Below are positions 15,548 through 36,245 of a stretch of DNA of 64,000 bases, piece after piece. A model generated the notes under the pieces. That model worked only from the letters and a program-made list of their open reading frames with translations, was not told where the DNA came from and ran no database searches. The translations under genes were made by a program, and so were the position numbers. Positions within the stretch are counted from its first letter, which is position 1. Each line of letters starts with the position of its first letter. The DNA comes from Bacillota bacterium. GTDB taxonomy: Bacteria; Bacillota; Clostridia; Ch29. The stretch is from the NCBI GenBank assembly GCA_013540605.1, contig JABVCK010000002.1, positions 32,339 through 96,338 on the forward strand. The letters run 5' to 3'.

Positions 15548-15553
15548 ATTATA

Positions 15554-16126: not shown

Positions 16127-16229
16127 CTGAATTCCTCCTATTGTTAATCTAAAACATAATTATGCATGTTATTGTTTTTTGTGAAGGCAAAGGCCGGCTT
16201 TTCGCCGGCCCTTGCCTAATCGGAGACAT

Positions 16230-16457: not shown

Positions 16458-16490
16458 CTCCCTTCAGAACATTGCGAACATTTCCGGATG

Positions 16491-16660: not shown

Positions 16661-16883
16661 AGACATCCACCATTTCCACCTGGTTGATCCTGTCAATGGA
16701 TGCTGCCGGAAACTCCTGAAGGCTAATAAGCGCTACGGCTATATCGTACACATCCTGGTCAGCGGCGCCGGCCTTTATACCCGAATAGGTCCGGGTTGAA
16801 TACTTTGGGTTTCCCTGGTCATCCTGCCCTATCTCCAGCCTGATTCTCAGCCTGGAGTCTACGGGTTGAACCTGTAGAGCCAT
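16659..16883 (-). CDS. DUF1659 family small protein
   Basis: 74 aa; partner of DUF2922 as usually found in Bacilli/Clostridia. Confidence 0.7.
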   Translation of the reverse strand: MALQVQPVDSRLRIRLEIGQDDQGNPKYSTRTYSGIKAGAADQDVYDIAVALISLQEFPAASIDRINQVEMVDV

Positions 16884-16959
16884 TTGCTTTCACCTCCTTT
16901 GCTCTTGCCTAATGTAATTCTAACCTGCGGACAAGTACCGGGTAAAAGGCCGCACCGCA

Positions 16960-17060
16960 CCTTAGCGGCATACATTATGCCGGTTAAACGGACACAAAAA
17001 ATAAAACGAGCGGTGTTAAGGCTCTCTTCTTCCAAAACACCGCCTGTTAAAAGCCGTTCC
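16960..17060 (+). repeat. Copy H1 of ~80-bp hairpin element derived from metK 3-prime end
   Basis: GCGGTGTTAAGGCTCTCTTCTTCCAAAACACCGCCTGTTAAAAGCCGTTCCCTTGCTATTTGCCGAAGGC ~85 percent identical to 32862-32945, which overlaps the true metK stop. Confidence 0.8.
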
Positions 17061-17164
17061 CTTGCTATTTGCCGAAGGCCTGGTTTTTTAGCAAGTCTTA
17101 TCTTAATTTCATCATTAGGTATAGCTAACCCAGTTCATCTATCCTGAGCAAAAACAGCTGAATA

Positions 17165-17483
17165 TATTAAATAACCACCATCCAAGTTTTTCACTCTGTA
17201 ACCGTTTAATTTTAAACACAAACAGAGGGATAAAACACAAACAGACAACACAAACAGAGGGACAGGTAAATAACCACCATCCAAGTTTTTCACTCTGTAA
17301 CCGTTTAATTTGAGCATTCTGGCAGCTATATATCCCCTGACACACAAACACAAACAGAGGGACATGAACACAAACAGAGGGACAGGTACTGTGTTTGACG
17401 GCCCTTGAGTACAGATAGGATACAAGTAGAAAACGAAGGAACATTATAAAGCATGATGGGATCAATAGGACCGTCCCCATGCT
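17165..17483 (+). repeat. Composite repeat R1: duplicated 44-bp unit, ACAAACAGRGGGACA minisatellite, and 112-bp block shared with 31193-31307
   Basis: AATAACCACCATCCAAGTTTTTCACTCTGTAACCGTTTAATTT at 17170 and 17268; CACAAACAGAGGGACA x5; block 17372-17483 matches 31193-31307 with 1-2 mismatches, bounded by GGGACAGG…CCGTCCCC. Confidence 0.85.
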
Positions 17484-17824
17484 GATTCTTCGTCCTCTGA
17501 TCATAAGGCAATTCTATAAAGATTGTAACACTGTGGTTATTTCCATTCAGTCTGCCTGCAAATTTATTTTTAACATACTGATTATGTCTGATACCAGATC
17601 AAAATATTTACCGATGGTGTCAAGAAGCATAAACTACTTGGCGTTTGCAATCTGGTAGGGGGATGAAAGACGTTCGATATCCACCTAAAAAGTTGCTTAC
17701 AGGCCCTTTTACGCTGCTTGTCGCACTGCCTGTGGCAGAACCGCTGGCCGTAACTTTCAGCTTGATATATTTGCCGGTATCATTTTCGGTGATGATACAC
17801 GTCGCGCCAGTCGCGCCAGGTATG

Positions 17825-18196
17825 TTACTGTAGGTCCCGCTGGTGGACAGCGATCTCATCCACTTTTAAAATCTTTATCCCTCCCATCAAAGGAAGAGGT
17901 TTGGCTTCTCCTTTATAAGCGTTGATGATCCCCAGCACCGCCAGGACAATGACCGCCAGGTTGCCAAGCGGAAGAAGCACAAACCAACCGATGAGGGGAA
18001 TAATGGAACCAAGAACATTTACAATCATAGCTGCCAGGAAAAGCACTAGCCCCTGGTTGGCATGGTACATGGCAAATTTTGATTCCCGGGCGGCCAGCAA
18101 AGGGACAAAAAACAGGATATAGGCCAAGATCGCCACAGTTTTATTCTTGTCGATGTCTTCCGGACTGTACCGTATGTTGCTACCCGGCATTTCCAT
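17825..18196 (-). CDS. Small multi-pass membrane protein (DUF4870-like)
   Basis: 123 aa, 3 TM segments, motif …FAMYHANQGLVLFL…IPLIGW…GIINAYKGEAKPLPLMG…. Confidence 0.55.
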   Translation of the reverse strand: MEMPGSNIRYSPEDIDKNKTVAILAYILFFVPLLAARESKFAMYHANQGLVLFLAAMIVNVLGSIIPLIGWFVLLPLGNLAVIVLAVLGIINAYKGEAKPLPLMGGIKILKVDEIAVHQRDLQ

Positions 18197-18245
18197 TCGT
18201 CATCCACTCCTTTTCTTTAATCTTTATTTCAAATATCCTATGACT

Positions 18246-19295
18246 TTATTCTAAACCCCAAATCCCGCCCCACTCCACCACAGCGTAAGGGCTGCGAACT
18301 ACTTTTTCAGGACAGGCGACAGGGTTGCAGGGTTGCCCCCGGTCCTCCTCGATCAAAAACCACAGCCTGGAGATGCTGATCGGCTCCGGCTCCACAATGA
18401 TAGGCATAATATTCTCCAGAATAGCGGTGCCCTGGGGATAAAAAACGTAGTCCTCCCGGCTTGAAAGCTTTTCCTCCCAGTATTCCACAAAATCGGCAGT
18501 TTCCCTGGCATTGAAGCCGTGCAGCTCCATCAGGCTGCGCAGGTCGTTCCTCAGGTTGTTCCCCCTGATTTTATACCCTTCTTCTCTCTGGAAACCCCGG
18601 TCCGGCACCCGCGCTTCATAAAACAGATAATCGTTGCGACCGTTGAGCGAACCGTTAAAGACTTCGGCCCTCCAGCCCTGTTCCCGGTCGTATGCCGGCA
18701 GGGAATCCGTGATATAGCCGCTGGGCTCCAAGCGGACCTGGACAGCCAGATCCCGGTCAGCGTAAATATAGATGTTGGGCTTGTAAACATCCAGGAAACT
18801 GCGGGCCGCATCGCCCAGGTTTTTTTTCAGCCAAGAAAATATCTTGTCAATGTTTTTCAGGCTGTCTACAGCTATCTTGCCCAGGGTTACAGTGACGGTT
18901 ATGGCCGCCAGCACCGGAAGGGTGGCTGTTCCCGTAGCCAGAGTATAAATTATGACGCCGGTCTGCGCTGCGTTGAGGACAACCTCTGTCCAGCCCGCCA
19001 CCTTGCCCACCATTGTGTGTTCTCCGGCAAGCATGCCGATAGTGCCCGACAATGTGTCGTAAATACCTTTGCCCAGGTTGTAGACAGGCCCGCCAGCCAG
19101 CTTGCAGCCGCCGTCAAAAATATCGTCCGCAACCTTCCCTGTCATACCATCCAACCCTAACACGTCGGAAACAACCCCTGCCCGGACCTGTACGGGATCA
19201 AGCGCAGGATGAAGGCAGACTGCCGCTGTCAGCGCCAGAACCGAAATTATGGCGATTACTTTTGTCCTTGTTCCGCTTATGGACCATCTCAACAT
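18246..19295 (-). CDS. Hypothetical secreted/membrane-anchored protein
   Basis: 349 aa, N-terminal signal anchor, Gly-rich region, high GC codon usage unlike flanks. Confidence 0.55.
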   Translation of the reverse strand: MLRWSISGTRTKVIAIISVLALTAAVCLHPALDPVQVRAGVVSDVLGLDGMTGKVADDIFDGGCKLAGGPVYNLGKGIYDTLSGTIGMLAGEHTMVGKVAGWTEVVLNAAQTGVIIYTLATGTATLPVLAAITVTVTLGKIAVDSLKNIDKIFSWLKKNLGDAARSFLDVYKPNIYIYADRDLAVQVRLEPSGYITDSLPAYDREQGWRAEVFNGSLNGRNDYLFYEARVPDRGFQREEGYKIRGNNLRNDLRSLMELHGFNARETADFVEYWEEKLSSREDYVFYPQGTAILENIMPIIVEPEPISISRLWFLIEEDRGQPCNPVACPEKVVRSPYAVVEWGGIWGLE

Positions 19296-19360
19296 TTTGC
19301 CAACCTTCCTTTAACCCCAAAACCTATTAACCCAAATTTTGGCATCCAGACAGCCTTTGC

Positions 19361-20200
19361 TCAATTGCCGCTGCCAGCCGTCCGGCTGCGGTAATAGCCT
19401 GCTTCCTGCTGCAGCTTAAGAATCTCCTGCCGCAAAGCGGCCTCCGGTTCAAGTTCCAGCGCTTTCTCCAGTTCGGCCAGCGTTTCCCGGTAGTCCATGA
19501 CCAGCAGGTGCGCTCTGGCCAGCTGCACATGAGCCAGGGTCAACTGCGGCTCCATTTCCGCCAGCTGGCCGGAATAGTACCGGGCAGCCTTATAATCTTC
19601 CAACCTGAGAGCGCATTCCCCTGCATACAGCCAGCCTTCAACCAGGCCTGGATCCTGTTGCAGGGCCTTTTGCAGGTTGATCAAGGCTTCTTTGTATTCC
19701 CCCTGCTGGTAATAAGCCAGAGCATAATTGAACAGCTCGGAAGCGTTGAACAGCCTGTACTCTTTAACTTCCCCCAGCACACCCGCCGCTTTTTCCGGCT
19801 GTTTCCCCCTCAAATAAACAGAAGAAAGGTTAAGCCTGAGCTGCGGGACATCCGGATGCTGAGCCAATAGCTCTTTGAGCAGCTGCTCCGCGCGGTCCAG
19901 GTCGCCGGCAGCCAGCAGGGAAACACTTTTCTTTACCGCCCTGTCCAGGTTTTGCGGGCCGGATGAAACTCCTGCGGCAGGCGCCGCCAAAGCCAATACA
20001 ACCGGCAGCGCAACCAGCGCCAAGTTGTAGGCCGAACGTTTTCTCCCGTTTTGCGGGCCAAGCTTTCGCCGGACAGGAGGACAGCCCAACACTGCCGCCA
20101 TGGCCCCGGCCGCCAGGCAGACCCCAGCCCAGGCTTCCCAGCCGGATAAAAGGCTATGCAATAAAACGCCGATTACCACCACTATACCTGCAACAACCAT
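19361..20200 (-). CDS. TPR-repeat protein with N-terminal membrane anchor
   Basis: Start moved to MVVAGIVVVIG; multiple TPR units (…ALAYYQQGEYKEALINLQKALQQDP…). Confidence 0.6.
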   Translation of the reverse strand: MVVAGIVVVIGVLLHSLLSGWEAWAGVCLAAGAMAAVLGCPPVRRKLGPQNGRKRSAYNLALVALPVVLALAAPAAGVSSGPQNLDRAVKKSVSLLAAGDLDRAEQLLKELLAQHPDVPQLRLNLSSVYLRGKQPEKAAGVLGEVKEYRLFNASELFNYALAYYQQGEYKEALINLQKALQQDPGLVEGWLYAGECALRLEDYKAARYYSGQLAEMEPQLTLAHVQLARAHLLVMDYRETLAELEKALELEPEAALRQEILKLQQEAGYYRSRTAGSGN

Positions 20201-20201
20201 T

Positions 20202-22652
20202 TTACTCCTGTCCTTTCTCCCTGATTCTTTCAATCTCAGCCAGCGCATGGTTGTACATGCTGAAAGGTTCGTACAAAGGATTGTCCCGGCGGGGGTTGAG
20301 CGCAATCACTTTGCGGAAAGCACGCTCGGCCCTGGCCAGGTCGCCGGTATGCTTGTAAACCATCCCCAGGCAGAAATACCCTTCCACCACATCCGAACGG
20401 CGCTCAAGAAATTGCAAGAAATTTTCTTCAGCCAGGGGATAACAGTCTTGCTTGAGGTAGCCCGCCATTTCATTGTAATTGACTCCCAGCAAGTAGTAGG
20501 GATAAGCCAGATGGGGGTTCAATTCCAGCAGCCGGGCAAAATGCCTGTTGGACTGCTCATAATCCTCAGCCTGCCTGGCTTCCAGGCCCAAAACATAATA
20601 ATAGGCAAGGGCCGGTTCCTGCTTTTTCTTCAGCTCCGCTATAAAGTCTTGCCCTTTCGTCGTTCCCCAGGAAGCTAATTCCTGGTACTCCAGCAAAAAA
20701 CGGTAAAGGTATTCGTCAATCTTTTTTATTTCATCGGGGCCGGCGCCTTCCCTGTCCGCCTCGCGGCAGAGGCCGGCCAGGGCTGCCAGGGCTGCCGGAT
20801 AATCCTGCATTTGCTGGGAGGCTACGGCCTGAAGGTAGAGCAGGGAAGCATCCTGCGCTCCCTGGGCTTTGATGACAGCCAAAGCCCGGGCAGGCTTTTT
20901 GTTTTCCAAAAGGGTATAAGCGTAATCTCCGGCAATCTCCGCATTCCCCGGGTACTTGGCGTGCATGGCCGCCATCAGCTGCTCAGCCTCTCCGGGGTGG
21001 CCGGATTTTACATACATGTATGAAGTGAACAGAGCCGCCCTGATCTCTTCTTCTTTCTCCCACGGCTTGGCGGTAAAATATTTTCGGGCATATTCATACA
21101 TATAGTCGGGGTAAGGAATCCGTTCCGCCAGCAGCGCCGCCTGGTAATAGCTTTCCGGCCCGGGGTTTTGCTCTGCGTATTCCAGCAATTCCGGCAAAAC
21201 CGCGCTTTCGTTCTCATACTCCGCCCTGTTCAAAAGCACATAAAGCTCTCTTCCCTTCAGCAAGGCCTCGAGTCTGGAGACTTCCTGCCGCAAGCCGGCC
21301 AGCCTTTTCTCCCCGGCGCCTGCCAGTCCGGCAAACCTGTCGCTGAATACACCCCGGGCAATGGCCAAATTAAGCGCCTCCCGGGCCTTTTCCTTCTCTC
21401 CCGCCGCCCAAAAGCCGCCTATGGTCCAGAGCCTGGCTTCGGGGAGGGCCGCAGCATTTTTCCCGGCACTATTGGCGGCTGCAGCCGCAAACAAGGTATT
21501 GATATCCGGATCGGTTTCTGCCTGGGAACTGGCCAGTTTAAGCAGCATCCCCTTGAAATAGGGGACATAGGGCGAATCGGGGCAAATTTCCTCCGCCCTG
21601 GTCAAAAATTCCTGGGCTTCTTCAATTTCACCCTTCTCCCGTATTTCCTTGATCCCCGTCAGGTACCCCAGGAAAGCCGAGAGATCCGCTCGGGCTTTGC
21701 GGTATTCCGAAGAGGCCTCCCCGCCTCGGCCCAGGTTCCATAAATTATCCGCCAGGATTATCCTTGCTTCGATGCTTTTCACAACCTGCCCCGGAGCGTC
21801 CAAATAGGGCAAAACGTTAAAGGCGGCAAACACAAGGGCCAAAACGGCTGCTCCGGCTGGGAACCATAAGGACCCGGCTGCCGGCTGCCCGATTTTTTCT
21901 CCAAATTTCTCCCCGTCTTTGGCCAGCATAAGCTGAGCGCTCCCTAATATCAATAAGGCAAGGGCCGTCTTTCCTCCGGCCAAAAACATCTCCAGGACAT
22001 AGCGGGAAAAAAACCCGTAAGGAAGAAGCCCCTTGAGAAGCACTTCAATTAATCGCATAACCTTGAGAAACACAGCTCCTGCCAGGAGATTGGCCAAGAC
22101 CAACAGCAAAAAGACAGGCAGCCTTCGCAGGCAGACCACAGCCAGAGCGGCGGCCGCCCGTCCTGTGCCGCGGGCAGGAACTCCATACAGCAAAAAAGCG
22201 ATTGCAGACATTCCAGCAAACACGGCAAACACAGCCAAAACCAGCAATAACCCGGCGAAGGTCAAGGCCGCCGCCCAACTGTTTACATCGCCCCGCCCGA
22301 TCATCCCGGCCAGATAATAGGTCCAGGCCCGTATGGCCAGCGGTACTGCCGCAACAACAGCGGCAAGTGGCAGCGTTCCCGCAATAAGTGTCGGGAAGGA
22401 AGCGCGGACGGTCTTAAAGCCGGCAAACGCTTTTCTGGAAAAAACAGCAGCCGCCAGCAGCCCCAGCAAAAAAGACGTGCCGGTAAAAAGAACCTGCAGA
22501 CCCATTGGAACAGGCCTTCCCGTCAGATAGAGAATCAGGCTGTTGAAAAGCCAGCCGCCATTCAGGAGAAAGAAGGCCAGCCAGAGCCAGCTCCAGTATC
22601 GGGCTGCGTATTTTGTTTCGGATTCCTTGAGAAGATTCAAATATTCTATCAT
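20202..22652 (-). CDS. Large polytopic membrane protein with C-terminal TPR repeats
   Basis: 816 aa; ~10 predicted TM helices in N-terminal half, TPR-like helical repeats in C-terminal half; ~65 percent GC. Confidence 0.6.
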   Translation of the reverse strand: MIEYLNLLKESETKYAARYWSWLWLAFFLLNGGWLFNSLILYLTGRPVPMGLQVLFTGTSFLLGLLAAAVFSRKAFAGFKTVRASFPTLIAGTLPLAAVVAAVPLAIRAWTYYLAGMIGRGDVNSWAAALTFAGLLLVLAVFAVFAGMSAIAFLLYGVPARGTGRAAAALAVVCLRRLPVFLLLVLANLLAGAVFLKVMRLIEVLLKGLLPYGFFSRYVLEMFLAGGKTALALLILGSAQLMLAKDGEKFGEKIGQPAAGSLWFPAGAAVLALVFAAFNVLPYLDAPGQVVKSIEARIILADNLWNLGRGGEASSEYRKARADLSAFLGYLTGIKEIREKGEIEEAQEFLTRAEEICPDSPYVPYFKGMLLKLASSQAETDPDINTLFAAAAANSAGKNAAALPEARLWTIGGFWAAGEKEKAREALNLAIARGVFSDRFAGLAGAGEKRLAGLRQEVSRLEALLKGRELYVLLNRAEYENESAVLPELLEYAEQNPGPESYYQAALLAERIPYPDYMYEYARKYFTAKPWEKEEEIRAALFTSYMYVKSGHPGEAEQLMAAMHAKYPGNAEIAGDYAYTLLENKKPARALAVIKAQGAQDASLLYLQAVASQQMQDYPAALAALAGLCREADREGAGPDEIKKIDEYLYRFLLEYQELASWGTTKGQDFIAELKKKQEPALAYYYVLGLEARQAEDYEQSNRHFARLLELNPHLAYPYYLLGVNYNEMAGYLKQDCYPLAEENFLQFLERRSDVVEGYFCLGMVYKHTGDLARAERAFRKVIALNPRRDNPLYEPFSMYNHALAEIERIREKGQE

Positions 22653-22718
22653 GCATCACAACAACCCTTCTGTCTTGGAAACGCATTTTGTATGCCAATC
22701 TCGGAGCTTATGCGCCTA

Positions 22719-25700
22719 TTACTGCCTGCTCGAAATGGTTACCGTCCGTGTTGTCCCGTCCCAGTTGATGTCACAATTCAGGTTTTCCGCCACAAACCTT
22801 ACAGGGACGTATGTCCGGGCCCCGATAATTATAGGCGGCACGTCGTTTGTAACCGATGCCCCGTTTACCAGCATCTTTACGCTGTCTACCCACATCTCAA
22901 GCATTGTGCCCTTGCCGGCAACCGTAATTTTTCTCTCGTCCTCTTTCCAGCTGATGCTGCCCCCTAAAGCTTCCACTACGGCCCTTATCGGCAGGATGGT
23001 CCTCCCTTCCTTAATAAGCGGCACTGTTCCTCTTCCCGGATCGATCTCCACCCTGCTGCCGTTTATCGTCATATAGGGATCGCCGATAGTCAGAGCAATA
23101 ATGATGTTTTGGCTTTGCCCGTCGCCGTCATCCCCCCAAGTATTGCCAGGGCTGCTTTCACCGGCATCGCCCGTTGCAGACTCCCCGGTCTCCTCGCCCG
23201 AAGAAGCGGGAAGCTCAAGCTGTATCGCCGGCAGCCTGATCTCCCCAAAAGGAGGCACAAAAAGCCTGCTGCCGCCCGGTTCCTGGCTGCCTGCTGAGGA
23301 TGCTTTTTGCCAGTTGGAAAAGAGCAGTTCTATTTTCTGGTAATAACCGTCGCAGAAAACAGCCTTGAGGGGCAGGTTGCTGCCCGGAGCGATAAATAGC
23401 TGTACTTTGACGTAAATATTCATGATGGGGTCGATCTTTTTGCTCTTTTCCCAGACCTGGCAGGAAATGCCGTTGACCTGTTCCGTCCCTTTCAAGACAA
23501 AAGGAACGTTCTGCAATTCCGGGATATAGTCGTCCAAATCGTAGCGGACGCTTTCTTTCCTGGGAAACTCCTGGTACTGCACAACCTTGGTGCCGGCTGT
23601 TTTATCCCACATTAGGATGGGATCGCGGGCGCCGCTTTCAACCCTTTGCTGCCCGTTCAGGACAGAGAATTTTATGTTGCTGCTGTAGGAAGGGGTGGAG
23701 GCTGCGGCGGAGGGATAGTATTTGACTGTCACTCCGGCAGCGCAGTTTTGCGCGGAAAGGGCCGTGTCGCCCGCCGCCGGGCTTTCCGCCGGCATCTGCC
23801 CTTCCAGCATTATTGCTCCCAGCGTTTTCAGGTAATAGCCGGCCGGGACGGAACCCACCAACGGAACGGTCTTTTCAATTTTGCCGATAAGGCCGCTGCT
23901 TCTTTCCTCCTCGCACGTCTTGGCCTCATTGAAATACTCCAGCTTTTTGCCTTCAACATAAAATTTCACTGATTCAAACACATGGTAGTTTACGGAACGC
24001 CCCCCTGCCAAAGAACTCCGGAACCTGTCCAATGGGGATGTAATCAGGCTCGCCAGGCTGTGCAGGTCCAGTTCCCAGGGGCCTGTGCCGGCAAAAGAGT
24101 ACCCTCTGCCGTAAACGGGTGTAAACTGCAGGCGCCACTCCCTGGACTTCAGCGAATTTTCCGGGCTGGCGCTGTGAGGATAAAGGGCCTCCACTTTAAA
24201 GTGAGCTTCTCCGTTAAAAGGCGGGACCGTCCCCGGGCCACCCAAGACCACGGTACTGTTTGGAGAGCTCAAGCTGTGTGCTTCCTGCAAGTAGCCTCCG
24301 GCAACAGAAACAGTCAGGCCGTCCGCTTCAACTACGGTGCTGTTGATGGTGAAGCCCTCGCTGTCAACCACGGCATATACCCGGTCAAAGGGGCGCAGAT
24401 CAACTCCCTGCAGCTGAAAGGCGCCGCCGGAGCTTTGTGCCTGCAACCTTATGGTATATTCAACAGGGAGCGAAAGATCCTCTTGGTGATGCAGGGGAAT
24501 ATTATTGGACCGTTCTATAAACAGCGAAACAGGCCCGTTGTATGACGAGAGCCCCTGGCCGGAACCACTCACATACCCCTTAACGGTATTTGATAGATAA
24601 TCGGCAACCTCCACGGCAACGTGATTATATGGGAAGCTCGCCTCACGGGGATAGGACCATAAATCGCCGCTCCCGGGAATCTTTACCCTCACCTGGTCAC
24701 CCTTTTTCAAGTCAAAAGACCTGCTGAAAAACCCGGAGTTGTCGGTGGAGGCGACAAGAAGCTTTTCAACCCCGGAATAGCTGGTTACCTTTAACAGGAT
24801 TTCCTGGTTGGCGTACGGTTTTCCCGTCCCTTTTTCAACAATGCTCCCCTGGATTATATCCCGGTAGGCACAAGCCTCGGCAATATCAATATTGTAAGAG
24901 CTGGAGCGCGCTTTGACATAATTGAAAATGGGATATTTATACTCATAAATTGTTTTGCTTTTATCAAAGGATTTGATCTTTACCCTGCCGTAAATTTTTG
25001 CGAAGCCATCGCCTTTAATGCTCAAGTAATCTCCGATTCCGCCTTGGACGCCGGCTTTGGCTTCCAAAAGAACGCCAATCTTGTTGTCCAGAATGACCTT
25101 TCCCTTGCCCAGGATGTCAAAGGCCACCTCGGCAAGCAGGCTGAGCTCTCCCTTTACGTCGGCGGAGAGGGATAATTCCTCGGGCGAAAATTCAAAGCTT
25201 ACCTCTTTGACAACATTAAAGCTCGTAGGCAGGTAATACGAGGTGCTTCCCTGCAATCCCGCTCTGACAGAAGAACTCTGCTTCACAGAATATTCCAGAG
25301 TGATCTTGCCGTCAACTCCCAAGACCAGGAAAAACCCAACCGTGATCTTGCAGCCTTCTGCAGGAACAGTAAAATCATAAAGCGGGATTTTAACATCTTT
25401 TTTCAGCTGGGCGAGCAGCTCTGCCTGCACTTCGGCCCTCTGGGAAGCATAAAAGATAAATTTATAGCCGCTCTCTTCCGTGTATTTGACCTCCACGGCG
25501 GGGGAATCGATATTAAGGCTTCCCTTCAAAGTAACCTCGACACGTTTCCCCTCCTGGTCGTACCCCGGCAGCGTCTGCTTTTCATTAAAATAAAAATTAA
25601 AGCCTGCCCTCTCCGTTGTGCCCGATTTCATCTTGTATGAAGCGATATTAATCCCTTGCGCCAGGTATGTAATATTGGCCTCATTGAGAAATACCGTCTG

Positions 25701-26180
25701 TTCGGGGATGGAGAGCTCCTCCACAAGTTTGTCATCGTCCGCAAGGAGGATGTATAAGATGCCTCCCTCTCCCCTGACAAACTCCAGGGCTATAAGGGAA
25801 GAGGGATCGATATAAATTTTGCCCGGCTCGACCTCAGGCAAAAGAGATGAACTTATTTTCCCGCCGCTGGCATGGTTTTTTATCGCCTGCGCCTGTGCTT
25901 CGCTCAACCAGCTCACACCGGGTTTCAATTTCAGATGGATGTTTTTCAGGGACGCGGGCTGGAGGCCGTTTGACCTGGCCTCCCGGGAGATGTCGGGAAG
26001 GCTAGGCGGGCCGATTTTTTGAAGAAGTTCACCTTCGATGAGGCTTAGTGATTTTGCATCATTTAGGGTAAAAGCATAGGCAGAAAAGCCGGGCATGGTC
26101 CAAGCAATTACCAGGACCGGCAAAAGGAAAAATATGACCAGTTTTTTAACTGAAGTAAGCCTGAACATACTAAAAATCAC
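22719..26180 (-). CDS. Large secreted protein with C-terminal copper-amine-oxidase N-terminal-like (stalk) domain
   Basis: 1153 aa; signal peptide MIFSMFRLTSVKKLVIFFLLPVLVIAWTMPGFSAYA; C-terminal …TINGSRVEIDPGRGTVPLIKEGRTILPIRAVVEALGGSISWKEDERKITV… characteristic of Cu_amine_oxidN1 domains common in Clostridia. Confidence 0.6.
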   Translation of the reverse strand: MIFSMFRLTSVKKLVIFFLLPVLVIAWTMPGFSAYAFTLNDAKSLSLIEGELLQKIGPPSLPDISREARSNGLQPASLKNIHLKLKPGVSWLSEAQAQAIKNHASGGKISSSLLPEVEPGKIYIDPSSLIALEFVRGEGGILYILLADDDKLVEELSIPEQTVFLNEANITYLAQGINIASYKMKSGTTERAGFNFYFNEKQTLPGYDQEGKRVEVTLKGSLNIDSPAVEVKYTEESGYKFIFYASQRAEVQAELLAQLKKDVKIPLYDFTVPAEGCKITVGFFLVLGVDGKITLEYSVKQSSSVRAGLQGSTSYYLPTSFNVVKEVSFEFSPEELSLSADVKGELSLLAEVAFDILGKGKVILDNKIGVLLEAKAGVQGGIGDYLSIKGDGFAKIYGRVKIKSFDKSKTIYEYKYPIFNYVKARSSSYNIDIAEACAYRDIIQGSIVEKGTGKPYANQEILLKVTSYSGVEKLLVASTDNSGFFSRSFDLKKGDQVRVKIPGSGDLWSYPREASFPYNHVAVEVADYLSNTVKGYVSGSGQGLSSYNGPVSLFIERSNNIPLHHQEDLSLPVEYTIRLQAQSSGGAFQLQGVDLRPFDRVYAVVDSEGFTINSTVVEADGLTVSVAGGYLQEAHSLSSPNSTVVLGGPGTVPPFNGEAHFKVEALYPHSASPENSLKSREWRLQFTPVYGRGYSFAGTGPWELDLHSLASLITSPLDRFRSSLAGGRSVNYHVFESVKFYVEGKKLEYFNEAKTCEEERSSGLIGKIEKTVPLVGSVPAGYYLKTLGAIMLEGQMPAESPAAGDTALSAQNCAAGVTVKYYPSAAASTPSYSSNIKFSVLNGQQRVESGARDPILMWDKTAGTKVVQYQEFPRKESVRYDLDDYIPELQNVPFVLKGTEQVNGISCQVWEKSKKIDPIMNIYVKVQLFIAPGSNLPLKAVFCDGYYQKIELLFSNWQKASSAGSQEPGGSRLFVPPFGEIRLPAIQLELPASSGEETGESATGDAGESSPGNTWGDDGDGQSQNIIIALTIGDPYMTINGSRVEIDPGRGTVPLIKEGRTILPIRAVVEALGGSISWKEDERKITVAGKGTMLEMWVDSVKMLVNGASVTNDVPPIIIGARTYVPVRFVAENLNCDINWDGTTRTVTISSRQ

Positions 26181-26202
26181 TTCCTCACATCTTTATTGGC
26201 AA

Positions 26203-26520
26203 TTACTTCTTACCACCCGGCATATTTCCGGACATCTCTTTAAGGCTTTCAGCCATGCCTTCTGGTGCCGGCACCAGGCTGATAGCCAGCGAAGTCGGGT
26301 AGTCTTTGAGTTCCTTGTCCTGCTCACTATTTTTAGTCACACAGACAGTATAAGTGTAGTCGTCTTTTGCTCCCATAATGGTGTATTCATCTGCCTGAGC
26401 CGTCTGTGAGATGATCTGGGAATCCCTAGTTCCATAGCTTGCAGGGAAAAGCCGCTTAGAACTGACAACGCCGTTGAACAGATTGCCAAGCTCCTTTTCC
26501 GTAAAATGACTTATTCTCAT
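26203..26520 (-). CDS. Hypothetical protein, translationally coupled to upstream lipoprotein gene (ATGA overlap)
   Basis: 105 aa ORF overlapping lipoprotein stop by 4 nt. Confidence 0.4.
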   Translation of the reverse strand: MRISHFTEKELGNLFNGVVSSKRLFPASYGTRDSQIISQTAQADEYTIMGAKDDYTYTVCVTKNSEQDKELKDYPTSLAISLVPAPEGMAESLKEMSGNMPGGKK

Positions 26521-27059
26521 TTTACAGGCTGCAAAGAAATGGTTATTATAGTCTGGTACCCCTTCTCGGTGCTTTTGCCCACGTCCATAGTATAGGCGTA
26601 CCCGCTTTTCGTTCCCATTGAAGTAAGGCTTTCGTCGGTTTTCGTGTCCATGTTGACCTGTGCTCCCTCCAAAACTTTTTCATAAAAAGCAATAACCTTT
26701 TTAACTTCGTCCTTGCTGAAAGCCGAAATGGTATATGAGCCTTCCAATTCGATTGCCGAGTAAATGAAGCTTCCTTCATATATAGGGAATTTGTCTGAGG
26801 GATAGCCTTTTGGCAATTCAACGCTTTTATCGGTTGCCACCGACAGGGAGCCGTCCCCGTTTTCGACCGACAGGGAGCCGTCTTTAGTTTTAACCGAAAT
26901 TGAAGTTTGCCCCGATTCTTGCGATTCGGCCGGTTTTTGCGCCTGTGAGGTTGCGCTTTTCATATCCTGCCCGGCTTGCTTGGGTTTATCGCTTGAGCAC
27001 CCCGTAAAAACAAGAGACATTAAGGCTGAGACAATAAAGCAAATAAATATTTTTTTCAT
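26517..27059 (-). CDS. Lipoprotein
   Basis: Start at MKKIFICFIVSALMSLVFTGC (lipobox FTGC); Ser/Gln-rich linker then globular domain. Confidence 0.6.
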   Translation of the reverse strand: MKKIFICFIVSALMSLVFTGCSSDKPKQAGQDMKSATSQAQKPAESQESGQTSISVKTKDGSLSVENGDGSLSVATDKSVELPKGYPSDKFPIYEGSFIYSAIELEGSYTISAFSKDEVKKVIAFYEKVLEGAQVNMDTKTDESLTSMGTKSGYAYTMDVGKSTEKGYQTIITISLQPVK

Positions 27060-27259
27060 GTTAAAACCCCCGTTTTTGTTTAAAATTAGGCTGTTTTTTA
27101 GAAATCCGCCCTGCGTAAATCCCAACCGCGAAATTGAAAAATATACCCAAAAATATTATAATATAAGGATAAAAGGTAAAAATAGTGCCGCAAGTCATCT
27201 TATCAATGACTTGCGGCTAATGATAAAAGCTATTGTTTTTTGCGGCGGAGGAAGCGAAA

Positions 27260-28978
27260 ATGACCGAAACCTTCGTGTATGAATCTTACTATATTGCTTT
27301 TTATCATATTCTTTCCCTGTTTTTGCTGGTCTTTATCAACGCGGTGATTTATCTTAAGGCGGTGAAAAGCTCATTATTGTCCTCGTTTTTTGTGTTGCAG
27401 GGCATACTTGCGCTCTGGATTGTCTCAAAGATTCTGAAAACATTTGCGCCAAATGCGGAGATAAAGTTTTTCTTTGTTGTTTGCCAGTATGCCGGCGTTT
27501 GCTTTCTGGGTCCGGCTTTTATTGTGTTTGCCCATATTTTTGCTAACGGCGTTAAACCTGCCAAAAAGCTTATGCTGCCGTTGTTTATAGTATCAGCTCT
27601 ATGCTTTTTGACAGTTGCGACAAATCCACTGCATTATTTATTTTATACACATTTTGATTTTTGGGGAGACAGCTTCGGGCCGCTTTTTTATTTCCAGCAA
27701 GGATTTAATTATTTGTTGTTTCTCATCGGAGGTATAATATGCGGAAAAAGGTTTTTTGGCCGGTTCAGCGAAAAACGCATTCAGACGATCCTGCTTGCCA
27801 TTGCGATAGCTATACCCATGATTGCCAATCTTCTCTATGTGTTCCGCTTTTTTAAGAAAATTTTCGGTTTTTCGCCGCCGTTTGACATAACGCCCATGTC
27901 CGCGTCTGCATCCCTTATCCTATTTGCCTTTGCCACCTTTAAGTTTCAATTCTTTGACAATCTTAAAATTGCCCGCAGGGTTGCTTTGTCCAATGTCCCG
28001 GAAGGTATCCTGCTTGTAATAGGAGACAGGATTGCAGGTTTTAACGAAACCTTTAATAAAATGGCGGCTGACGGCAAACTTGTTCCCGCAGGCAAAGAAA
28101 GCATCGTCAGGACTTTTGGCAATGCCGCCCGTTTGCATAATCGTCAAAAGCTGTCTGTTGCCTTTGATACGGGCAAGCCTCAGGATTTCATTTATCAAAC
28201 CGGAGTTCGCAGCTACATAAGTGTTATTTGCCGGCCGGTAAGAGATAAATCGTTCAGCGGAGCATTTATACGCTTTATTGATGTTACGGCAAAGCAAGGC
28301 ATTCTGGAAAAGCTGCAGATGAGAAATGACGAATTGCAGTTTGCCAATCAACAATTGACAATTCAAGCCGAACTGAAAAAAAAGCTTGTTGTGGCCAGAA
28401 CGCGCAATTTTATAGCACAGGAAGCCCACGACATATTGGGACATTCAATCATGCTTGCAATTTCCTTATTGGAAATAGCCCGAATGTGCAATACGGCGTC
28501 TCAGGGAATGGAATACATGCATAGAGCAAAAAAAATTTTATCCGACTGTCTGAAGGAAATCAACTCGGTTGCTTCGGCGGAAAACCAAAGCCCTTTGATA
28601 AGGCAAAGCATCGAAGAACGGTTGGAAAAACTTGCTGATGATTTCCGCTCGGCATTTATTGCCGTGGGGATTCACTGCTCCAATTTGAAGCAGGAGATTG
28701 ACATCTCAATAGAAAGCACCCTGTTCAAGCTGTGCCGCGAAGGCATAACCAATGCATTGCGGCATGGGAAGGCAAGCAGGGTAGACATTATTTTGCGAGA
28801 TAAAAACGAGATGATAGAACTGTTTATCATAGACAACGGCTCGGGATGCGGGAAGGTGCAAAAAGGCATGGGCTTAAGCGGCATGGAGCAGCGGGTTTCC
28901 ATGCTGAAAGGCGCCTTTCGCTGCCATACTTTAGACGGTCAGGGATTTTGCGTACAAGCGTCCATCCCTCTTCATTAA
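27260..28978 (+). CDS. Sensor histidine kinase, multi-TM N-terminal sensor + HisKA_3 + HATPase (NarL-partner type)
   Basis: 7-8 TM helices; H-box AQEAHDILGHSIM; N/G boxes (…GITNALRHGKAS… / …DNGSGCGKVQKGMGLSGMEQR…); start moved to ATG at 27260 after GGCGGAGGAAG. Confidence 0.8.
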   Translation: MTETFVYESYYIAFYHILSLFLLVFINAVIYLKAVKSSLLSSFFVLQGILALWIVSKILKTFAPNAEIKFFFVVCQYAGVCFLGPAFIVFAHIFANGVKPAKKLMLPLFIVSALCFLTVATNPLHYLFYTHFDFWGDSFGPLFYFQQGFNYLLFLIGGIICGKRFFGRFSEKRIQTILLAIAIAIPMIANLLYVFRFFKKIFGFSPPFDITPMSASASLILFAFATFKFQFFDNLKIARRVALSNVPEGILLVIGDRIAGFNETFNKMAADGKLVPAGKESIVRTFGNAARLHNRQKLSVAFDTGKPQDFIYQTGVRSYISVICRPVRDKSFSGAFIRFIDVTAKQGILEKLQMRNDELQFANQQLTIQAELKKKLVVARTRNFIAQEAHDILGHSIMLAISLLEIARMCNTASQGMEYMHRAKKILSDCLKEINSVASAENQSPLIRQSIEERLEKLADDFRSAFIAVGIHCSNLKQEIDISIESTLFKLCREGITNALRHGKASRVDIILRDKNEMIELFIIDNGSGCGKVQKGMGLSGMEQRVSMLKGAFRCHTLDGQGFCVQASIPLH

Positions 28979-28981
28979 GCT

Positions 28982-29665
28982 CTATATAATATTGTTTTGC
29001 AGGGCAAACACGGCAATTTGCGTCCTGTCCTTCAAGCCGGTCGCAGTCAAAATGCGCGTTATCCTGTTTTTTATTGAACCTTCGGAATAATTCAGAGCCT
29101 CGCCGATCTCTTTATTGCTTTTTCCGTCTGCCAAAAGCCTGATAATCTTTCTGTCAATCGCGTCGAGACCATATTCGTCGTGCAACTCCTCCAACGCCTC
29201 AAGCTCATTTGCTTTTTTTGAAGCCAACGGCTTAATCTGCTTGCGAACCAGTCCGGCAATTTCATCCTGCATGACAAACAAACCCTCAAAAACGCATTTT
29301 ATAGCCATTATTAGCATTGGGGGCTTAATATCCTTCAAAACATAACCGTTTGCGCCTTTTTTGTATGCTTCCAGCACATTTCTTTCATCTCCGAATGTAG
29401 TGAGCATAACGACCTTTATATGCGGCATTTCTCTTTTTAGGGTTTCCAGTGCAAAAACGCCGTCCCTGAGAGGCATTTTTATGTCGAGAAGCACAATATC
29501 CGGGTTTCTTTTACGGCAAATACCAAGGATTTCCTCCCCATTGCCTGCAAGGCCTACAATTTCCATTTCACTGTCGGATGAAAGAACCATTGAAAGCATT
29601 TCCCGAAGCAGCACCTGGTCATCGGCGATGGCTATTTTAATCATCTTTCCCATCCTTTCCGCCAT
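28982..29665 (-). CDS. Response regulator, NarL/FixJ family (REC + LuxR HTH)
   Basis: 227 aa; MIKIAIADDQVLLREML…DIVLLDIKMP… receiver; C-terminal LTATGLKDRTQIAVFA HTH. Confidence 0.85.
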   Translation of the reverse strand: MAERMGKMIKIAIADDQVLLREMLSMVLSSDSEMEIVGLAGNGEEILGICRKRNPDIVLLDIKMPLRDGVFALETLKREMPHIKVVMLTTFGDERNVLEAYKKGANGYVLKDIKPPMLIMAIKCVFEGLFVMQDEIAGLVRKQIKPLASKKANELEALEELHDEYGLDAIDRKIIRLLADGKSNKEIGEALNYSEGSIKNRITRILTATGLKDRTQIAVFALQNNII

Positions 29666-30776
29666 CCGGCATCAGTTTTTGCATGGCAAGGCGCACCCCT
29701 GCCATCGCTTCCCGGCAGTTTTCTATCAAAGCCGGCAGTTTTTCCTGCTTATTGCAAAAGGACACCGCTTCAAGATCTGAAAGCAGTTTTTCAATCTTGG
29801 CTCCGACCGCTTCCTTTATTTCTTTTGCGGCTTTTGCTTTCTGTTCTTCTTCCACAAGTTTTTCGGCGGTATCCAAAAAAGTCTTAAGCTGAATGTTCAG
29901 TTTTTCAAGTTCGGCATTTTTATCCGCCAGTTCTTTTTCAAGCAGCGATTTTTCCGTTATGTCGTGAAAATTCAGTACTGTAGCCTGAATGCTTCCCTTT
30001 TTATCCTTTACCTGGGTTGTGCCGCATTGGTAGTGCTTTATGCCATTGGAAAAGGAAAGCGCAATTTCTTCATGCCGCACCATGCCGTTCTTTTCGGCGC
30101 ACTTTTTTGAAACGGTCATTGCCTTCAGGCTTTCAAGGAACTCATTTATCGTCAAACCCTCATGCAGAAATGGCCATGTTTTTTTTGCCTGCACGTTGGC
30201 ATCAATAAGTTTCCCGCTTTTTTCGAATATCAGCACCATGTCGTCAAGCTCCTGCATGAAACTGTCGATTGACACGTGCGAAAGCTCCGCAAACAGGCTG
30301 CATCTTGACCAAATCAGAAACATGCTGAAAACGCAGAAATCCAGCACAGGCAGATAATCAGCCAATACGCCGGACCTGTTTTTCCATAGGTAAAAAACAC
30401 ACATAATGTGTATCAGGAAAACCAGGCCAAACATGCCGCATTGTCTGGGACCGCACCCTCCGCGATACATGCCGAAAAAAACGCATAACAGCGGGACAGC
30501 GGCCAACATGGCAATAAACCGCCGCAAATCCAGGTACATGTCCTGAAATTCAAGCGTAGGAGAAACAAGCGCCAATAACCCCATAACCGGCAGGCATAAC
30601 AACCCGAGCAAAGTAATAATAATTACCCAGAATAAAAAGCTTTTCCCAACTTTTATAAATCCATATGCGCATAAAAAGGCTCCAAACACGATGCAGGCAA
30701 TTGTGATTGCAATCAGAAGCATGGCATATGGGGAATAAGCGGCATAATAGTCTATCATCCTCACTCCTCCAGCCAC
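29637..30776 (-). CDS. Membrane sensor protein with PAS-like domain and degenerate His-less HisKA_3-like coiled coil, no ATPase domain
   Basis: 379 aa; 5-6 TM helices, PAS-like region, then EEEQKAKAAKEIKEAVGAKIEKLL where kinases have ERxRIARELHDxxGQ; overlaps RR gene by 29 nt. Confidence 0.55.
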   Translation of the reverse strand: MAGGVRMIDYYAAYSPYAMLLIAITIACIVFGAFLCAYGFIKVGKSFLFWVIIITLLGLLCLPVMGLLALVSPTLEFQDMYLDLRRFIAMLAAVPLLCVFFGMYRGGCGPRQCGMFGLVFLIHIMCVFYLWKNRSGVLADYLPVLDFCVFSMFLIWSRCSLFAELSHVSIDSFMQELDDMVLIFEKSGKLIDANVQAKKTWPFLHEGLTINEFLESLKAMTVSKKCAEKNGMVRHEEIALSFSNGIKHYQCGTTQVKDKKGSIQATVLNFHDITEKSLLEKELADKNAELEKLNIQLKTFLDTAEKLVEEEQKAKAAKEIKEAVGAKIEKLLSDLEAVSFCNKQEKLPALIENCREAMAGVRLAMQKLMPDGGKDGKDD

Positions 30777-31102
30777 AGTTTAAATTCTTCCAGCCTCATA
30801 CCGCCGTTCAAGCACAATTCCCGTTTCTTCCTTGCTTCGTCAGACCACTCATAAAAAGCTTCTTTGTTATTTTTCTGTACTTTATCCATGCAAAGCGTTT
30901 CTTGTATGCCTTGCTGTACGCCTTCAAAGCCAGATTTCCTTCCTTCTTTTTCTCCCATAGGCGGAGCGCCCCCATTTCCTTGCAGGTACGCCCAGCGCTG
31001 TCAAAAGGTCTATCACAGTATCCCGTATTATCGATTACTTTTAAAACCATTATATATAAGTGTTAACAAGAAAACCAGCATGGAATAGAATGTCATTATG
31101 GA

Positions 31103-31307
31103 CTATAGAATATAATTATTGATATCAAACAGGGGGACAAACAGGGGGACAGGACAAACACAGACAAACAGGGGGACAGGTACTGTGTTTGGACAAACAG
31201 GGGGACAGGTACTGTGTTTGACGGCCCTTGAGTACAGATAGGATACAAGTAGAAAACGAAGGAACGTTATAAAGCATGATGGGATCAATAGGACCGTCCC
31301 CATGCTT
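31103..31307 (+). repeat. Composite repeat R2: CAAACAGGGGGACA minisatellite plus 115-bp block shared with 17372-17483
   Basis: CAAACAGGGGGACAAACAGGGGGACAGGACAAACACAGACAAACAGGGGGACAGGTACTGTGTTTGGACAAACAGGGGGACAGGTACTGTGTTTGACGG…CCGTCCCC. Confidence 0.85.
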
Positions 31308-31334
31308 CCCCCATGCTTCTATGCTTCCTTGCGT

Positions 31335-32345
31335 TTAAAAACTGTCTGGCGGAAAAGCATATCTACATTCGTTAAAGTTAGCAAGTCTGTGTATGCAATT
31401 ATCAATGGCCGTTTGCAGCTTCTTTGTCTGCTTTACACCTTTTTCATACCAGATATTTTTCACAACCAACGTTTTCGCCTTGCGGTCACGTATTACCTCA
31501 ACTCTGCCGATAAAGCGGTCGCCGTACAGCAGCGGTAGGACATAGTAGCCGTATTTACGCTGTGCTTCAGGCGTGTAGATTTCCCATTTGTAGTCAAAAT
31601 CAAACAGTGCCTTGATAAGCCGCCTGTCCCAAAGTATATTATCAAGCGGAGCAATTAGCTCACAACGGGCTTTTAGTTCAGGTTCCTGCAGGACTGTTTC
31701 GAGTAATCCCCGGTCGGTCGAAAGGCAATACAGCTTGTCCTTAATGCCATCAACCGTAATTTCAAGGATTTTTTCTTCTGCAAGCAACTGCCTGAAAATC
31801 TCGTTTCGCTCGGCAGATTTCAATCCCCAGATATTTAGCCACGCATCGGAAGACTTGTTCCACAGTAGTCCCACTCCACCAATTCGGCGCAGCACACGCC
31901 ATTTTTGGTGATCAAGCTCATCGGGATACGGCTCCGGTGTGTTCAACAGTTCAACAGCAATACAGTTCTCTGCAAGGTCGTAATACTTTATTGTCCCTTT
32001 CTTGTGGTGCACCACCAAATCACCACGGAAATACATGGTTTCCAGGGCGGCACGGGAGAGCTTTGTATCACTCCAATACCATTTAACCCTATCATTAAAC
32101 CCAATATCAGCTGACGAAACAGCACCCTTTTTGCGAATGATATTCTTGATTTCCTCGCATACGGCATCGACCTCGCAGTGACTTCTGCCGCCGGTTTTAT
32201 ATGCTTCACGATACCGCCTGAAATAAGGCCAGTCTGAGGTTTCTATAATCGCAAGGTTTTTATCGAAGTAGTCGAGTAGTGTTCTGTCCTCGTATAAAAG
32301 TGAATACAGCCTTATTATATTCTCTACGTTAACAAAAAAACACTG
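31335..32345 (-). pseudogene. YcaQ/AlkZ-family winged-helix DNA glycosylase homolog, N-terminally truncated (no start codon in first ~100 codons after upstream stop)
   Basis: Reading frame open from stop at 32346-32348 to 31335 (…SDWPYFRRYREAYKTGG…YGYYVLPLLYGDRFIGRVEVIRDRK…) but first ATG is MYFRGD at 32036; YcaQ family normally ~400 aa. Confidence 0.5.
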
Positions 32346-32524
32346 TCATTCAATCCTTTTTGTAAAGAACAAAAGGCGTCAGGCTGTAATAATACTTCAA
32401 CAATTGGTTAGCATAATCCACTAGTTGATTATAAAGACAGGAGTGACGGGGGGACGGAGTCGCCATAACTTTGTACATATAAACCTCGTATGGTATAATA
32501 TAATCACTGTAGGAGGCGTTAAGG

Positions 32525-32848
32525 ATGGATAATGATGAATTATTTATTGCAATGAAAGATATGTTTGAAAAGAAGGTTGACGAAGTTAAGCAGCATACAG
32601 AGTTGTTAATTGAAAAGCTGCAAGACGATATCAAAGCAATTGCTGAAGGCCATAGCGTTTTCGATAGAAAAATTGACAATTTGCAGAGTGATTTGATTGA
32701 AACTAAACAAGAGCTCAAGTTAGAAATAAATGGATTGAAAGTAGAAATAAATGGATTTAAAAAAGATATGGCTATAGTTAAGGATTATGTTATAGGCGTC
32801 GATGCAAGGCTAAACGAACATGAAGTAGCCTTAAAAAAAGCAAAATAG
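32525..32848 (+). CDS. Small coiled-coil protein of unknown function
   Basis: 107 aa, heptad-rich (…KQELKLEINGLKVEINGFKKDMAIVKDYV…), occupies position of missing ycaQ N-terminus on opposite strand. Confidence 0.45.
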   Translation: MDNDELFIAMKDMFEKKVDEVKQHTELLIEKLQDDIKAIAEGHSVFDRKIDNLQSDLIETKQELKLEINGLKVEINGFKKDMAIVKDYVIGVDARLNEHEVALKKAK

Positions 32849-32861
32849 GTAATAGGAAGGA

Positions 32862-32945
32862 AAACTAACCAGGCGGTGTTAAGGCTCTATTCTGCCAAAA
32901 CACCGCCTGTTAAAAACCGTTTCCTTGCTATTCTCCGAAGGCTTG
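32862..32945 (+). repeat. Copy H2 of hairpin element, overlapping true metK stop
   Basis: GGCGGTGTTAAGGCTCTATTCTGCCAAAACACCGCCTGTTAAAAACCGTTTCCTTGCTATTCTCCGAAGGC; last 18 nt encode metK …AFGE*. Confidence 0.8.
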
Positions 32946-36242: not shown

Positions 36243-36245
36243 ATA

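Follow-up and report, generated by a model that had tools for sequence, protein, structure and literature searches.

The 64,000-nucleotide stretch of DNA examined here (the window) comes from the metagenome-assembled genome (MAG) of a Bacillota bacterium (Clostridia, Ch29; GenBank assembly GCA_013540605.1, contig JABVCK010000002.1, positions 32,339 to 96,338). Our subject is the 16 kb within it that lie between metK and the DUF1659 gene, a candidate genomic island. From the metK side, this segment holds a coiled-coil open reading frame (ORF) of 107 amino acids (aa), a truncated gene for an AlkZ-like DNA glycosylase, a frameshifted DUF6076 gene, and a nine-gene module for envelope and signaling proteins. 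An outer pair of direct repeats that carries the end of metK encloses this material, and an inner pair of 114 nt with adjoining arrays encloses the module and the DUF6076 gene (Table 1).

We compared the surroundings of metK at the 80 species-representative loci kept by a scan, among which the best metK identity was 80%. RecD2 follows metK on the same strand at a distance of 0.08 to 2.2 kb in 13 of these loci, which come from Clostridia, Tissierellia-like MAGs, and others. A first-pass annotation of the window had asked whether DUF1659 stands beside metK elsewhere; the order metK, RecD2, with or without DUF1659 and DUF2922 between them, proves to be widely conserved, although the comparators are distant (RecD2 identity, 47 to 54%). 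Locus L025, for example, reads metK, a 246-bp gap, DUF1659, DUF2922, and RecD2; in locus L005, 2.2 kb of small accessory genes, among them a sigma factor-like ORF, separate metK from DUF1659, which a ComK-like gene follows. The window keeps the orientation, with 17.4 kb between metK and RecD2. Set against a spacing of 0.08 to 2.2 kb in a conserved gene order, this distance identifies the segment as an insertion.

The outer repeats are 85% identical over 88 nt, and comparison of the window with itself by BLAST returns 76 nt of them at 89.5% identity (E = 7e-22). A 36-nt pattern drawn from their hairpin has exactly 2 matches in the 64 kb, with 0 expected. The right copy spans the stop codon and last codons of metK (...LRKQAFGE*). 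The left copy, about 115 bp upstream (minus strand) of the DUF1659 start codon, includes ten codons and a stop (...DLLKNQAFGK*, 17065-17097) that are preceded by an in-frame TAA and so represent an orphan gene end; it is identical in contigs L001 to L003 of the same species. The first-pass annotation had recognized both the pair and the remnant of an AFG(E/K)* coding end, but its left copy, at 16960-17060, was set 25 to 40 nt too far to the left of the position found here, 16998-17085. As none of the 80 other metK loci ends in QAFG(E/K)*, the orphan end derives from the metK of this or a closely related lineage, and the same would hold for an element that circulates among relatives with a copy of its own target.

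Both outer copies share one hairpin fold (z = -4.9 for the right copy). The right copy has the stronger stem and a poor U tract, while the left copy retains a U tract that runs into the native DUF1659 flank, a division that is expected if a crossover occurred in the hairpin, at a 21-nt identical stretch. That stretch is the longest identical run between the copies and has mismatches on either side. Contig L003, from a slightly diverged strain, has its position 1 at window position 17052, inside the 21 nt; its first base agrees with the metK-side copy, a single base that is compatible with either state of the site. As in the attL and attR of integrase-dependent islands, the direct repeats contain part of the target gene, and the geometry of the duplicated metK end fits that which integration at a gene 3' end produces, with the short metK-like end beyond the cargo attached to the better of the two terminators and to native DNA. 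Integration at the metK 3' end had been proposed in the first-pass annotation; the insertion and the duplicated target end support this in outline, with a role for an integrase inferred from the scar only. A short-homology single crossover is a possible alternative origin of the outer scar.

The inner repeats agree with the earlier description of two nearly identical direct repeats, with 98% identity over 114 nt; with the adjoining arrays, self-comparison by BLAST gives a 154-nt match at 89%. The arrays, like a 45-bp exact repeat nearby and the heptamer arrays described below, had gone unmentioned in the first-pass annotation. Array units share one start position, ACAAACAG..., and end at various points, and their number and layout vary among strains. 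The right array has fewer units in contig L004, and the 45-bp repeats vary in copy number and layout in L001 and L002. In every strain seen, all left units carry the variant CAGAGGGAC and all right units CAGGGGGAC; these copy-specific variants indicate that the arrays grew locally after the two inner copies had diverged. Outside the repeats, the two copies have common flanks of 8 nt on one side and 5 nt on the other, so that duplication of one locus, as in Campbell-type integration, would fit better than two independent insertions.

In the public collections searched, matches to the inner repeat are confined to this locus. A pattern of its 22-nt core was found 0 times in species-representative genomes and 0 times in viral contigs, and in metagenome contigs it was found at the same locus only (L004). 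BLAST with a 241-nt query (31100-31340) that takes in the repeat plus its arrays gave no match among plasmid or phage records, and exact look-up of the spurious ORFs of the 114-nt repeat returned the source MAG's own annotation only. Searches of public collections, a scope that excludes the source genome's other contigs, thus do not show the repeat as dispersed. Folding of the 114-nt repeat was no better than that of shuffled sequences, and Rfam gave no covariance-model match up to E = 1 for 16400-17700 and 30900-33000, regions around both ends. Either pair of repeats might consist of ordinary terminator modules, recurring by common descent or convergence and unrelated to the arrival of the segment, inasmuch as on the minus strand every copy lies just 3' of a gene and has a hairpin followed by a T-rich run. 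We judge this highly improbable: the coding remnant with its stop codon in the outer copy is needless for a terminator, a simple terminator scan calls neither pair, and these matches (98% over 114 nt and 85 to 89% over 76 to 88 nt) are the only long repeats of the kind in the 64 kb.

The ends of the inner repeat raise the question of another origin for this pair. They are inverted, GGGGACAGGTAC... at one end and ...AGGACCGTCCCC or ...GGACCGTCCCC at the other, about 100 bp apart, and of the type GGGGAC(A)GGT. The same two terminus types flank three units of differing length: 62 bp at 59220-59281 in the window; 105 bp, with 22- to 28-bp perfect inverted repeats, in a Peptococcaceae MAG (L098); and 540 bp in Virgibacillus (L056). 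They also form palindrome arrays in a Lachnospiraceae genome (L063). The 11-mer GGGACGGTTCT occurs 10 times in 1.76 Mb, compared with about 0.8 expected. The 114-nt repeats could on this evidence be two copies of an element resembling a miniature inverted-repeat transposable element (MITE), and the DNA between them a composite mobilized in trans or simply flanked by chance; the pair would then be uninformative about Campbell-type integration. MITE-flanked integrons of Acinetobacter are composite units of this sort, and they share with the metK segment near-identical short noncoding direct repeats with inverted termini around cargo genes. Unlike in those composites, no target-site duplication is visible around the unit, the flanks outside the two copies are alike rather than different, as would be unexpected for independent insertions, and a cognate transposase is neither known nor present. 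The restriction of the 22-nt core to one locus, its absence from representative genomes and viral contigs, and the lack of plasmid or phage matches to the 241-nt region also speak against a MITE-like element, and the interiors of the GGGGAC(A)GGT-terminated units are mutually unrelated. We consider this origin of the inner pair unlikely.

A broader possibility is that small elements with inverted GGGGAC(A)GGT termini make up a family yet to be described, of which the inner repeat would be one member. Such elements, seen in at least four Firmicute lineages (the source MAG, the Peptococcaceae MAG, Lachnospiraceae, and Virgibacillus), would seed nested, end-anchored, strain-variable partial copies and, as portable recombination sites, bracket and move blocks of genes. 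This we regard as a long shot. For the GGGAC-terminated repeats no known family or enzyme was identified; at least four Firmicute lineages carry the motif. Palindromic forms of the motif were absent from viral contigs and the Virgibacillus and Lachnospiraceae elements from plasmids, and a search of the literature on GGGAC motifs found nothing relevant. Short units terminated by GGGGACGGTTCT and GGGGACAGGT were seen at 47246-47290 and 59200-59322 in the window, at 4960-5100 in L098, at 2440-2615 in L063, and at 7205-7745 in L056. The sequence just outside such termini is often tandem (TATATCAAGGGGAC twice, ATGGGACA twice, and CCGTTTTT three times). The unit at 47246 is located at the extreme 3' end of a molybdopterin oxidoreductase ORF, and that at 59.2 kb lies upstream of genes for a Cache histidine kinase and sigma-54 activator pair.

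Between the inner repeats is a 13.8-kb segment that contains exactly a module of about 13 kb and two gene wrecks. The nine genes of the module encode a PAS protein, a response regulator, a seven-transmembrane (7TM) histidine kinase, a lipoprotein, a Cu_amine_oxidN1 protein of 1,153 aa, two TPR proteins, o349, and a DUF4870 protein, for which family libraries gave domain names only. Homologous sets (lipoprotein of 173 to 180 aa, Cu_amine_oxidN1 protein of 1,000 to 1,150 aa, membrane-TPR protein of 816 aa, and TPR protein of 279 aa) occur in unrelated neighborhoods in Desulforamulus hydrothermalis (L091/L092), a member of the Peptococcaceae according to NCBI, and in metagenome contigs L094 to L096, L097, and L098, with side genes that vary by organism. 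The histidine kinase is present in L094 to L096 and in L097 and absent from the D. hydrothermalis copy. What the first-pass annotation called an orphan two-component system is therefore part of a conserved module, as the neighborhoods of L094 to L097 show. The trio of o379, regulator, and kinase also precedes other genes (L102), which indicates that the module is itself modular.

The two halves of the module have different closest relatives. The structural half (17864-26425) is 88.8% identical in DNA to L094/L096, 82 to 86% to D. hydrothermalis (L091), and 75 to 77% to L097; its proteins are 80 to 92% identical to their homologs (81 to 90% for D. hydrothermalis), and those of o349 reach 87% in D. 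hydrothermalis and 82% in metagenome contigs. The regulatory half (26514-30799) is 88.4% identical in DNA to L097, which has the gene order of the window, with o379 added and the kinase inverted, and its proteins are merely 33 to 43% identical to their L094 counterparts. Because the two halves match different variants, each at about 88%, and the reciprocal matches are much weaker, the module in the window is a chimera of two variants. At the joint, a complete lipoprotein gene (o202) precedes a remnant of an L094-type one (o105), namely its 3' 230 nt. The kinase gene is opposite in strand to the response regulator gene in the window, L097, and L102 and codirectional with it in L094 to L096 (L094 512-2269), so that the two variants differ by inversion of one gene. 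In gene set, order, and DNA identity (82 to 89%), the window module is like those of D. hydrothermalis (L091/L092) and L094 to L097; it differs from them in being chimeric, with a leftover truncated lipoprotein gene. These identities to contigs of other organisms contrast with at most 80% for metK and at most 54% for RecD2 among the 80 loci, and together with the differing neighborhoods they give the segment the foreign content of an integrase-dependent island. Sequence comparison thus supports the view that its main content is horizontally mobile DNA.

Wrecked genes lie on both sides of the module. The DUF6076 pseudogene sits between it and the right inner repeat. The last codons of this wreck are also found upstream of the o379 homolog in L097, where the remnant adjoins a marginal fragment of a type IV coupling protein (PF02534, E = 3.6e-4), a weak link to conjugative elements. 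Searching for an intact parent element through DUF6076 yielded only other fragmentary contexts without recombinases, and in the literature on DUF6076 nothing relevant was found. At the other end, between the module and the left inner repeat, is a 79-aa ORF that is probably the wreck of a gene for a repeat-containing surface protein. The AlkZ-like gene and the 107-aa ORF are outside the inner pair, on the metK side; the former retains an open frame, and the latter, the most AT-rich gene of the region, belongs to no informative family. PHROGs and NCBIfam searches with the small and unknown ORFs gave nothing useful. In variant contigs from two other samples (L085/L087), an insertion sequence (IS) of about 2.07 kb has entered the truncated start of the AlkZ-like gene at window position 32365; it codes for a 633-aa DDE_Tnp_1 transposase and has CCCGAGTTTAACAG inverted ends (L085, 1-2068).

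A further alternative is that no site-specific integration took place and that a variable spot between metK and RecD2 was filled piecemeal by homologous and illegitimate recombination of incoming DNA, the orphan end being the last bit of a since-deleted second metK brought in with such DNA or of a replaced native copy. The spacer of other lineages does hold different accessory genes, such as the 2.2-kb set of L005. Illegitimate joints are seen in the truncated AlkZ-like gene, the truncated lipoprotein duplicate, the altered end of DUF4870, and the surface-protein fragment, and the outer copies are 15% divergent without a long identical core. However, the duplication takes in the last 10 codons and the terminator only and ends exactly where a recombination site at a gene 3' end would, and a random deletion would need to stop just at that point. 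In addition, a heptamer array of this genome's type and an S-adenosylmethionine (SAM) riboswitch upstream suggest that the present metK is native. We find piecemeal filling doubtful as an account of the whole.

No enzyme that could have moved the segment was found. Pfam scans detected no integrase or transposase domain in the sizeable ORFs from 15.5 to 63 kb or in small ORFs near both ends, in accord with the first-pass annotation, and its description of the segment as decayed or nonautonomous is supported in that no mobility gene survives. The recombinase that an integrase-dependent island has inside it is missing here. Of the genes expected in an integrative and conjugative element, relaxase, coupling protein, and type IV secretion genes are absent from the window, leaving the DUF6076 wreck and the marginal L097 fragment. 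With respect to prophages, nine ORFs of the region had no meaningful PHROGs match, and no DNA match was found in phage records or viral contigs.

Same-species contigs (99 to 100% identity) from at least seven datasets each contain one junction or an interior part, and all agree with the window. L001 to L003 cover DUF1659, the orphan end, and the left array; L088 and L089 cover the module and the left inner repeat; L004 covers the right inner repeat and o379; and L086 runs from the right inner repeat through the AlkZ-like gene and the 107-aa ORF to metK. These assemblies break in or beside the inner repeat. None of the contigs shows an excised, circular, or empty state, as all end in repeats or match the window, and strains differ in the short arrays and one IS only. 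The island is fixed in the population, with no sign of current mobility.

Table 1. Features of the segment between metK and DUF1659 and of its borders (positions are those of the window)
Feature	Position	Strand	Remarks
RecD2	13295-15547	-	displaced native metK neighbor (block of four genes, 13295-16883)
ComK-like gene	15554-16126	-	displaced native metK neighbor
DUF2922	16230-16457	-	displaced native metK neighbor
DUF1659	16659-16883	-	displaced native metK neighbor
Outer repeat, left copy	16998-17085	-	orphan metK-like 3' end (10 codons), terminator hairpin, U tract
Two exact 45-bp repeats	17168-17212 and 17267-17311 (block 17168-17311)		partial units of the inner-repeat 5' end between them
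Left array	17213-17369	+	partial 5'-anchored inner-repeat copies (ACAAACAGAGGGACAGG...); every unit with left-copy variant CAGAGGGAC
Inner repeat, left copy	17370-17483	+	114 nt; contigs L088 and L089 end in or run through it
79-aa ORF	17620-17859	-	looks like a surface-protein fragment; weak partial domain matches only
DUF4870	17825-18196	-	structural half; gene end altered
Structural half of module	17864-26425	-	53.0% GC
o349	18246-19295	-	structural half
TPR protein, 279 aa	19361-20200	-	structural half
Membrane-TPR protein, 816 aa	20202-22652	-	structural half
Cu_amine_oxidN1 protein, 1,153 aa	22719-26180	-	structural half
Second lipoprotein-gene copy (o105)	within 26203-26520	-	5'-truncated; 3' 230 nt of L094-type gene
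Regulatory half of module	26514-30799	-	44% GC
Lipoprotein o202	26517-27125	-	complete; L097-type, 98% protein identity
7TM histidine kinase	27233-28978	+	regulatory half
LuxR-type response regulator	28982-29665	-	regulatory half
Membrane/PAS-like protein o379	29637-30776	-	regulatory half
DUF6076 pseudogene	30761-31050	-	frameshifted, N-terminally truncated; PF19553, E = 3.7e-8 on merged translation
Right array	31126-31192	+	partial 5'-anchored inner-repeat copies; every unit with right-copy variant CAGGGGGAC
Inner repeat, right copy	31193-31306	+	114 nt, followed by CCCCATGCTTC twice
AlkZ-like DNA glycosylase gene	31335-32345	-	PF06224, profile positions 34-329; about 30 N-terminal residues and start codon missing
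Coiled-coil ORF, 107 aa	32525-32848	+	31.8% GC
Outer repeat, right copy	32861-32948	-	true metK 3' end (stop 32928-32930) and hairpin
metK, 396 aa	32928-34118	-	
Heptamer array 5' of metK	34158-34238		
SAM-I riboswitch 5' of metK	34353-34460		

The reading we favor, with a confidence slightly better than even, is that the 16 kb between metK and DUF1659 are a genomic island, nested and now decayed, whose point of entry was the metK 3' end and which was assembled in at least three steps. The first-pass annotation saw a single element framed by two pairs of repeats; what the segment presents is instead a nested mosaic of at least three layers, namely an outer layer with wrecked genes, the inner segment bracketed by the 114-nt repeat, and the chimeric module within it. 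In the first step, a foreign element would have integrated at the metK 3' end, presumably through a site-specific recombinase that made the outer junctions, with the crossover lying within the last codons and the terminator hairpin. If the element brought its own metK-like end, metK would have retained a working 3' end and hairpin, and on the opposite side of the insert an orphan metK-like end would now adjoin the U tract of the original terminator and the native DNA downstream. The truncated AlkZ-like gene, the AT-rich 107-aa ORF, and some repeat debris may be what remains of this element.

A second integration at the inner repeat may then have added the 13.8 kb between the two 114-nt copies, most simply as circular DNA that recombined with a resident copy. 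Its cargo would have been the horizontally circulating nine-gene module, with the DUF6076 wreck at one end. In a third step, the structural genes of one module variant would have been swapped for those of the other, and the truncated lipoprotein duplicate would mark the joint. Last, all mobility genes would have been lost and the island fixed, with the arrays and one IS still varying. The order of these events is one that the scars suggest.

Several observations weigh against this history. The 64-kb window, segment included, has no gene for an integrase, excisionase, transposase, or conjugation function. Mismatches between the outer copies, at 13 of 88 positions, are scattered throughout, with no long identical core. 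Some features of the inner repeat are those of a small element with inverted termini, of a kind found elsewhere too, so that another origin is possible for this pair. In L005, L008, L010, and L030, about 2 kb of other accessory genes lie between metK and RecD2, and this spacer may in general be a variable spot that several mechanisms have filled. No empty site was seen in same-species contigs or in a close relative, the nearest comparators having RecD2 identities of 47 to 54%. Finally, the contrast in base composition between the segment and its flanks is modest. The first-pass annotation gave 60 to 67% GC for 18.2-26.2 kb, where a count in 1-kb windows gives 50 to 56% (53.0% over 17864-26425), and its figure of about 40% for 26.2-31 kb was imprecise (43.9% over 26.4-30.8 kb); the flanks average 48.1% (standard deviation, 2.9; range, 41.9 to 54.6% in 2-kb windows). 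Strong compositional foreignness was rejected on these values.

Islands that use the 3' end of a gene are well known, and the metK segment appears to be of this type, a fairly ordinary decayed genomic island. ICESt3 uses the 3' end of fda. Salmonella genomic island 1 (SGI1) is described as integrating at the 3' end of trmE (PMC8409611), and dusA-specific islands likewise are described as integrating at a housekeeping gene (PMC4482086). The metK segment resembles these islands in its insertion at the 3' end of a conserved gene that is left intact, its repeats with the last codons, the orphan gene end at the far junction, and the foreign cargo between the repeats. It differs in having no integrase, excisionase, or transfer gene and in repeats that are only 85 to 89% alike. 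On metK as an attachment site, a simple keyword search, as distinct from a survey, found nothing relevant in the literature. Accretion of islands at one site is reported for tandem SGI1 arrays (PMC2297512), to which the metK segment is similar in having more than a single layer of direct repeats, with DNA of mixed origin stacked at one chromosomal site. Unlike in those arrays, the outer and inner pairs have no sequence relationship to each other, which implies that the layers used different attachment sites.

Other features of the window were recorded in passing. Tandem arrays of 7-nt units (CACAGTT, CACTGGT, TCGCAGA, AACTACG, CAGTTGG, and the like) occupy intergenic spacers at 5681-5864, 8061-8090, 16492-16660, 34158-34238, and 40425-40606, including the gap between the SAM riboswitch and the metK start and that between DUF1659 and DUF2922. 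We take them to resemble the heptamer short tandemly repeated repetitive sequences of cyanobacteria, although the host here is a Firmicute MAG. The arrays at 16492-16660 and 34158-34238 were considered as a third pair of boundaries and rejected, as arrays like them occupy three further intergenic sites in the window. At 35116-36487, immediately upstream of the metK region, a gene for a putative Uma2-family endonuclease with a Phd/YefM-like N terminus (35317-36042) lies between tRNA-Tyr and a cluster of four tRNAs (Thr, Val, Glu, and Pro). The flagellar-gene flank has a full-length raiA RNA motif (2203-2407, minus strand; 184 bits). In the ATP synthase operon, 57034-57870 (minus strand) encodes a 278-aa protein with three tandem ATP-synt_C domains (three stretches by Pfam). 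At the DNA level, the repeats are about 70% identical among themselves, and about 56743-56993 is likewise about 70% identical to the c-subunit repeats.

In six Paenibacillaceae (L038, L045, L053, L066, L068, and L072), homologs of the NAGPA-domain protein encoded at 36848-39685 in the window are found about 5 to 10 kb downstream of metK. The same rows hold a Cu_amine_oxidN1 protein, a LuxR-type regulator, and a histidine kinase (with no kinase match in L066), and identities are 24 to 36%. This likeness is probably a coincidence of common families, though the same families are near metK in the window.

The metK segment offers a clean worked example of the layered accumulation of foreign DNA at a chromosomal spot beside an essential gene, followed by the loss of every mobility gene. 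Should integration prove to be the true reading, the metK 3' end joins the list of gene ends used as entry points, and because island-finding software usually needs an integrase and would miss such a case, the metK example could help. Of all its parts, only the GGGAC-terminated repeats might lead to a new finding. The nine-gene envelope and signaling module, which moves between Peptococcaceae-like lineages and recombines between variants, may deserve study.

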